From the NCBI RefSeq assembly GCF_055900595.2, contig NZ_CM148325.1: a DNA stretch of 64,000 nt; one strand, written 5' to 3'. A program made the position numbers and the translations under genes. Within the stretch, counting starts at the first letter, position 1, and the number at the start of each line of letters is the position of its first letter. The notes beneath the pieces were generated by a model, which had not been told where the DNA came from, searched no databases, and was given only the letters and a program-made list of their open reading frames with translations. Below, one piece after another: positions 8,747 to 8,754 of this stretch.

Positions 8747-8754
8747 TTACGGGC

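Follow-up and report, generated by a model that had tools for sequence, protein, structure and literature searches.

In Escherichia coli K-12 an rhs element lies between the convergent genes yhhJ and nikR, and in the DNA analyzed here the two genes adjoin one another. How did the close junction arise, and how is it related to the K-12 arrangement? An earlier note on the window (the whole 64-kb stretch of DNA that was analyzed) stated that rhsB, with yhhH and yhhI, lies between nikR and yhhJ in K-12, and took the junction to be either the state before insertion of the element or the result of its clean deletion. The stated position was correct. MG1655 carries rhsB-yhhH-yrhC-yhhI at this position, 6,689 bp from stop codon to stop codon, so yhhJ and nikR are not adjacent in K-12. 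The absence of rhs from the window also stood, since no homologues of Rhs, YhhH, YhhI, HicA/B, or the PTS operon described below were found across the 64 kb (tblastn with K-12 RhsB and YhhH).

The gene yhhJ (7622–8746, plus strand) encodes a 374-residue ABC-2 type transporter permease and ends in a TAA stop codon at 8744–8746. It is the final gene of yhiI-rbbA-yhhJ, and its start overlaps the rbbA stop. The opposing gene nikR (8755–9156, minus strand) encodes the 133-residue nickel-responsive repressor, is the final gene of nikABCDE-nikR, and likewise stops with TAA (TTA on the plus strand, 8755–8757). The genes therefore end tail-to-tail, at 8746 and 8755 on opposite strands, exactly as the note had described. 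Their entire intergenic region is the 8-bp spacer TTACGGGC (8747–8754), and the junction reads ...GGCG, TAA, TTACGGGC, TTA, ATCTTCC... on the plus strand. Both proteins keep their K-12 lengths, as they do in ST131, Nissle, and O157. The NikR protein scores 235 bits against its NCBIfam equivalog model (cut-off 83), and the ORF upstream of yhhJ is RbbA (NCBIfam, 1597 bits). In a 99.9%-identical genome (strain Z0117EC0005), RefSeq names yhiI-rbbA-yhhJ and nikR-nikE-D-C-B, and the gap between yhhJ and nikR is likewise 8 bp. The full-length junction is present in 165 complete E. coli genomes, indicating a real chromosomal state and no assembly artefact.

At least five alleles were distinguished at the yhhJ-nikR site among 5,426 complete E. 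coli genomes, so the note's choice between two states was too narrow. When genomes were assigned by megablast coverage thresholds, rather than by inspection of each genome, the rhsB allele (in which yrhC is a pseudogene) accounted for about 39%, an 823-bp allele with only a hicAB toxin-antitoxin pair for about 27% (∼1,489 genomes), a 5.9-kb PTS/kinase/aldolase operon allele, found in ST131 and Nissle 1917, for about 19% (∼1,051 genomes), and an allele with both hicAB and the PTS operon, found in O157:H7, for about 11% (∼584 genomes). The empty 8-bp allele, with 165 genomes (3%), is the rarest of these states. Most of the genomes counted (61%) lack rhs at this site. The PTS operon comprises a GntR-family regulator, galactitol-type PTS IIA, IIB, and IIC components, an FGGY kinase, an HPr-like protein, and a class II aldolase. 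Junction-specific queries against the same 5,426 genomes matched a PTS-type nikR junction in 1,635 and a K-12 rhsB-type nikR junction in 2,126, and the four nikR-side junction types together account for 5,415 of 5,425 matching genomes. The gap between yhhJ and nikR is at most 1.4 kb in 1,654 genomes, which, less the 165 empty ones, leaves the ∼1,489 with hicAB only; a hic-type yhhJ junction in 2,073 genomes then gives the ∼584 that combine hicAB with the PTS operon. A 188-bp query derived from Nissle found the hairpin/REP-type yhhJ side in at least 1,738 genomes, a lower bound that was left out of the tallies. This query gave a match of any kind in just 3,652 genomes, probably because the exact 28-bp word required by megablast is missing from the variable stretch in many strains.

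Carriers of the empty allele fall into three groups: the window's own divergent lineage (eight genomes) with its nearest relatives; a block of B2 strains that makes up about three-quarters of the carriers and includes UPEC 536, F11, A0 34/86, and ST1193 isolates; and a few other strains. The closest relatives of the window have the empty or the hicAB-only allele, not rhsB. Over its whole length, the window is ∼94–97% identical to K-12, and at the locus only 8 of the 5,426 complete genomes reach 99% identity to it (16 at the ftsYEX-rpoH region), indicating that it comes from a rare, divergent E. coli lineage.

In E. coli hotspots, accessory genes lie between conserved core genes, and their alleles are exchanged by homologous recombination in the flanks. 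The yhhJ-nikR site resembles these in its intact, collinear core genes, its five or more cargo states, and its mosaic, unusually divergent flanks. It departs from them in that the window is free of cargo, no mobility gene or tRNA lies at the site, and the cassettes also segregate in Citrobacter. Five alleles and shared cassettes are typical hotspot behavior, and the 8-bp feature is an ordinary strain-to-strain polymorphism of an already-known kind. Jackson et al. (2009; Hill laboratory, PMC2935791) designated nikR-yhhJ as rhs "position 9" and inferred that it evolved in the K12/HS/ATCC8739 lineage only, and rhs was tabulated as absent from this site in E. coli W (PMC3032704). The absence of rhs was therefore already known. 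A full-text literature search for yhhJ together with nikR matched only Jackson et al. (2009), and none of the literature searched in full text described five alleles at the site, a connection of the rhsB spacer to the PTS spacer, or cassettes shared with Citrobacter. The window has the chromosomal position and flanking genes of this rhs locus, whose variable presence among strains is documented. Unlike the RhsB element, it has no Rhs core ORF with its C-terminal tip, no yhhH, and no yhhI (H-repeat/ISEc1).

Comparison of the junctions suggests which alleles are related. In the empty allele, the TAA of yhhJ is followed by TTACGGGC and then by the TTA of the nikR stop; in the PTS allele of Nissle, the TAA is followed by TTACAGTTGCCC..., and ...GTTGGTAGGTG precedes the TTA. 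Aligned in blocks, the Nissle junction is TAA-TTAC-AGTT...GGTA-GGTG-TTA and the empty junction is TAA-TTAC-GGGC-TTA. In the spacer, TTAC equals the 4 bp directly downstream of the yhhJ stop in the Nissle PTS allele, and GGGC lines up with the 4 bp that adjoin nikR in PTS alleles, which read GGTG in E. coli, GGCG in E. whittamii, and GGAG in E. albertii. At 8 bp, the match is too short for firm homology between the spacer and the PTS-allele ends. A single clean indel of 5.9 kb, placed between TTAC and GGNG, distinguishes the two alleles; it leaves both coding sequences intact and takes out the PTS operon along with the 3′ stem-loops of both yhhJ and nikR. Variants of the spacer were seen: TTACGGGG in B2 strains and in MFDS1022581, and TTACGAAG in the Escherichia lineage SCPM-O-B-8794. 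Position 7 of the spacer is G in all E. coli empty alleles, versus T in every E. coli PTS allele compared.

The rhsB allele of K-12 shares its first 88 bp after the yhhJ stop (a stem-loop and a partial REP) with the PTS allele, and it diverges inside the REP, where the end of yhhI (ISEc1/H-repeat) truncates that element. The 8-bp and PTS alleles end nikR with TAA, the hicAB-only and rhsB alleles with TGA (all 16 sequences compared). Retention of the 88 bp of PTS-allele spacer and the TGA stop show that rhsB was not inserted into the 8-bp site; the rhsB allele derives from a PTS-allele-like spacer. The junction in the window lacks those 88 bp of longer spacer and is thus not the rhsB pre-insertion site. 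The note had proposed alignment to K-12 and other strains to look for a target duplication, and none was found. Neither TTACGGGC nor any part of it is duplicated in the rhsB, hicAB, PTS, or hicAB + PTS junctions compared, and, unlike at the insertion site of a transposable element, the cargo of occupied alleles is not flanked by short direct repeats of the empty-site sequence.

Two specific routes to the empty allele were considered and rejected. Simple deletion from the hicAB-only allele does not fit the ends of that allele, which are GGAAGGG...GAAATAAC with a TGA stop and contain neither TTAC nor GGGC. A microhomology-mediated deletion through the GT/GTG common to ...TTACA/GTT and ...GGTAG/GTG is not convincing; it predicts an 8-bp spacer of TTACAGTG, which matches the observed TTACGGGG at six of eight positions and so has the right length and the wrong sequence.

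The same site was inspected in other species. The PTS operon is present at this position in E. albertii, E. whittamii, Escherichia sp. E1V33, and MOD1-EC7003, that is, in four of the five non-coli Escherichia lineages sampled, and its divergence is like that of the flanking genes. In E. albertii NBRC 107761 the operon's GntR-family regulator gene is interrupted at a contig end (L011, ∼10700–10846) by what we take to be the end of an IS1. SCPM-O-B-8794, labelled E. coli and in fact a species-level lineage ∼93–94% identical to all else, has an 8-bp spacer (TGA-TTACGAAG-TTA), which indicates that the empty allele is old. In the Citrobacter freundii complex and Salmonella enterica subsp. diarizonae, nikR and yhhJ are mostly tail-to-tail with spacers of 15–103 bp that consist mainly of REP elements. 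Cassettes also occur in Citrobacter: the site is occupied by the PTS operon in C. amalonaticus S646 (75–96% amino-acid identity) and by hicAB in C. sedlakii. The adjacency in Citrobacter and Salmonella, together with these cassettes, indicates that the synteny is old and that the cassette polymorphism is common to genera.

Several further features of these loci were noted. The hicAB genes of C. sedlakii (L036, 10403–11239) are bracketed by a REP-like direct repeat of ∼48 bp (TCCGGCCTGCGGTCGCGAACTGCGCCAGGCCGGAGAAGCGCAGCGCAC...), which hints at how the cassette may have entered in that species. In the C. freundii complex and S. enterica subsp. diarizonae, the nikR beside yhhJ is 95–97% identical and has no NikE match upstream (L018, L019, L023, L024, L027, L028, L034, L035, L039, L041, and L042, with nikR at ∼10001–10399 in most), so nikR may be orphaned from nikABCDE in these Citrobacter and Salmonella. 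An uncultured Klebsiella MAG (L061, 6689–7305) and Enterobacter sp. JUb54 (L076, 10459–11084) have hicAB homologues with 82–84% amino-acid identity directly downstream of nikR, so the linkage of nikR to hicAB extends beyond Escherichia and Citrobacter; yhhJ was absent downstream of nikR over the <1 kb examined in the MAG contig and the 10 kb examined in JUb54. The MAG "Citrobacter sp. HRGM_Genome_0066" contains two E. coli-like loci, one hicAB-only and one PTS (L010 and L014), and NikR is 100% identical in both. This bin seems to be mixed or mislabelled, and these E. coli-like contigs were left out as evidence for Citrobacter.

We conclude that the 8-bp junction is probably the empty (null) allele of an accessory-gene hotspot that has several alleles and is flanked by the convergent core genes yhhJ and nikR, and that it was most plausibly formed by loss of the PTS operon. 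The operon would have been lost from stop codon to stop codon in an Escherichia ancestor, most likely once as far as E. coli is concerned, since every E. coli copy has G at position 7 of the spacer; homologous recombination in the mosaic flanking genes would later have maintained the allele or carried it from one lineage to another. The principal alternative is that the site was never occupied. The 8-bp junction would then descend from the adjacency found in Citrobacter and Salmonella, and the PTS operon, hicAB, and rhsB would all be later insertions. This is possible and clearly less probable. Tail-to-tail adjacency is the commonest state in the C. freundii complex and S. diarizonae, with spacers as short as 15–17 bp, and it could be the older state. 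The 8-bp allele is itself old, being present in a second species-level Escherichia lineage and next to very divergent flanks, and the GCCCGT next to nikR in the window is similar to the ttGCC(C/T)GT that opens many Citrobacter spacers. Against this, the PTS operon, diverged to a similar degree as the core genes, occupies the site in four of the five non-coli Escherichia lineages sampled, the spacer fits the extreme ends of the Escherichia PTS spacer (TTAC..GGNG) and not the Citrobacter ends (ACATCATT...), and yhhJ and nikR in the window lack the 3′ stem-loops seen in the PTS allele. In any case, rhsB did not insert at the 8-bp site. We judge an old stop-to-stop loss more likely than a site that was never filled.

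The flanking DNA bears on how the empty allele spread. The 3 kb of the nik operon adjoining the site (nikCDER, 8755–11754) differ by 4–7% from one ordinary E. coli strain to another, which approaches the divergence between Escherichia species, and within the 300 bp of nikR that border the junction the strains compared show up to 28 differences. A search for a haplotype of the flanks that marks the empty allele found none, because the flanks are mosaic. In the B2 carriers, the flanks are of B2 type to within 18–39 bp of the junction, so a single origin requires later homogenization of the flanks by recombination, or else a second event. A more speculative reading is that the junction is a long-lived, trans-genus balanced polymorphism in which nothing, hicAB, and the PTS operon segregate in Escherichia and Citrobacter. 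Its basis is the placement of boundaries at or inside stop codons, together with nik flanks almost as divergent within E. coli as between species. We regard this as unlikely; if true, it would imply selection maintaining the alleles or an unrecognized targeted exchange at convergent gene ends.

The B2-specific flanks could also reflect recurrent, site-specific excision or integration at both stop codons, producing the same 8-bp junction independently. Cassette boundaries that fall exactly at, or within, the stop codons and the presence of the same cassettes at the Citrobacter site agree with such a process. However, no integrase, recombinase, att-like repeat, or target duplication was found in any allele compared, and selection against damage to either gene explains stop-precise boundaries without an enzyme. 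Under repeated excision, the junction in each lineage should match the ends of the PTS allele found there (TTACGGTG or ATACGGTG). The shared G at position 7, seen in no E. coli PTS allele compared, argues for common descent. We therefore consider recurrent excision very unlikely. Clean deletion of a former rhsB element, one of the two states the note had allowed, has scarcely any probability: although rhsB occupies this site in K-12 and ∼39% of complete genomes and Rhs elements are recombinogenic, its removal would leave ATAC..., hairpin/REP remnants, or a TGA nikR stop where the window has TTAC, no remnants, and TAA, the window has no similarity to Rhs, YhhH, or YhhI, its closest relatives are empty or hicAB-only, and the literature places the origin of the locus solely in the K12/HS/ATCC8739 lineage (PMC2935791). 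Nothing in the sequences compared suggests that the window's lineage ever carried an rhs element.

Loss of the PTS operon would have left both genes without the stem-loops that follow their stop codons in the PTS allele, one after each gene (−23.8 kcal/mol, z = −3.1, and −17.4 kcal/mol, z = −3.8). The note had stated that the junction leaves no room for a terminator, and the scans agree. A consensus terminator scan of the window found two candidates, the chance level (1.8 expected), and none at the junction. Folding of 180 nt or ∼66 nt at the junction, on either strand, was no better than for shuffled sequences (z = +1.05, +0.66, −1.25, and −1.10). A perfect 10-bp palindrome, CGTAATTACG (8742–8751), spans the yhhJ stop and the first five bases of the spacer; it has no loop, forms no stable hairpin, and is probably incidental. 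Given the lack of a hairpin terminator, it is reasonable to infer that the yhhJ and nikR transcripts end within the opposing gene, whether through Rho, collision of polymerases, or read-through. Widespread overlapping or bidirectional termination at convergent E. coli pairs has been described (Ju et al., 2019, as presented in bioRxiv 10.1101/2022.10.23.513370). Like those pairs, yhhJ and nikR are convergent with essentially no intergenic DNA, so their opposite-strand transcripts must overlap or collide. Unlike the pairs as presented in that source, in which an RNA stem-loop in the overlap region positions the collision, yhhJ/nikR has no stem-loop better than shuffled sequence. Tight convergent spacing is a common situation in this genome; four of seven convergent pairs in the window's lineage, yhhJ/nikR included, end no more than 8 bp apart. 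Convergent ends also lie 3 bp apart at dcrB/yhhS (32579–32583) and 2 bp apart at yhhL/yhhM (38297–38300), and they overlap by 14 bp at yhhA/ugpQ (57049–57062).

The weight of the finding is little beyond bookkeeping. It corrects the view of variation at this site, which is not merely the presence or absence of rhsB; rhsB in K-12 replaced, or landed beside, an older spacer common with the PTS-operon allele, and the 8-bp form, although rare (3%), is old. To those who annotate genomes or study pangenomes, yhhJ-nikR offers a clean example of a multi-allelic hotspot. Strains with the empty allele, such as UPEC 536 and F11, have nikR and yhhJ without a 3′ hairpin and could serve in studies of terminator-less convergent transcription.

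Elsewhere in the window, other differences from K-12 were seen. A cluster of ∼15.4 kb between acpT and yhhT (14795–30184) is absent from K-12. In a 99.98%-identical genome, it is annotated with ApeI/ApeP dehydratases, a ketosynthase/chain-length factor, two ACPs, and an AMP-binding enzyme, as well as GT2, LolA-like, and MMPL proteins and FabG2. From these annotations, it looks like an aryl-polyene-type lipid cluster beside the AcpT phosphopantetheinyl transferase. At 59354–59404 the K-12 segment of yhhZ, yrhA::IS1E, yrhD, and yrhB (∼3.4 kb) is missing, and yhhY and ggt lie tail-to-tail, 49 bp apart. A gene for a tetratricopeptide-repeat protein between ugpB and livF (51001–51747) has no K-12 counterpart at that position, and a small hypothetical ORF between zntA and tusA (34559–34867) lies in ∼450 bp absent from K-12. 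The RyhB sRNA (60043–60107), far from the junction, is the sole Rfam family that reaches its gathering score in the window.
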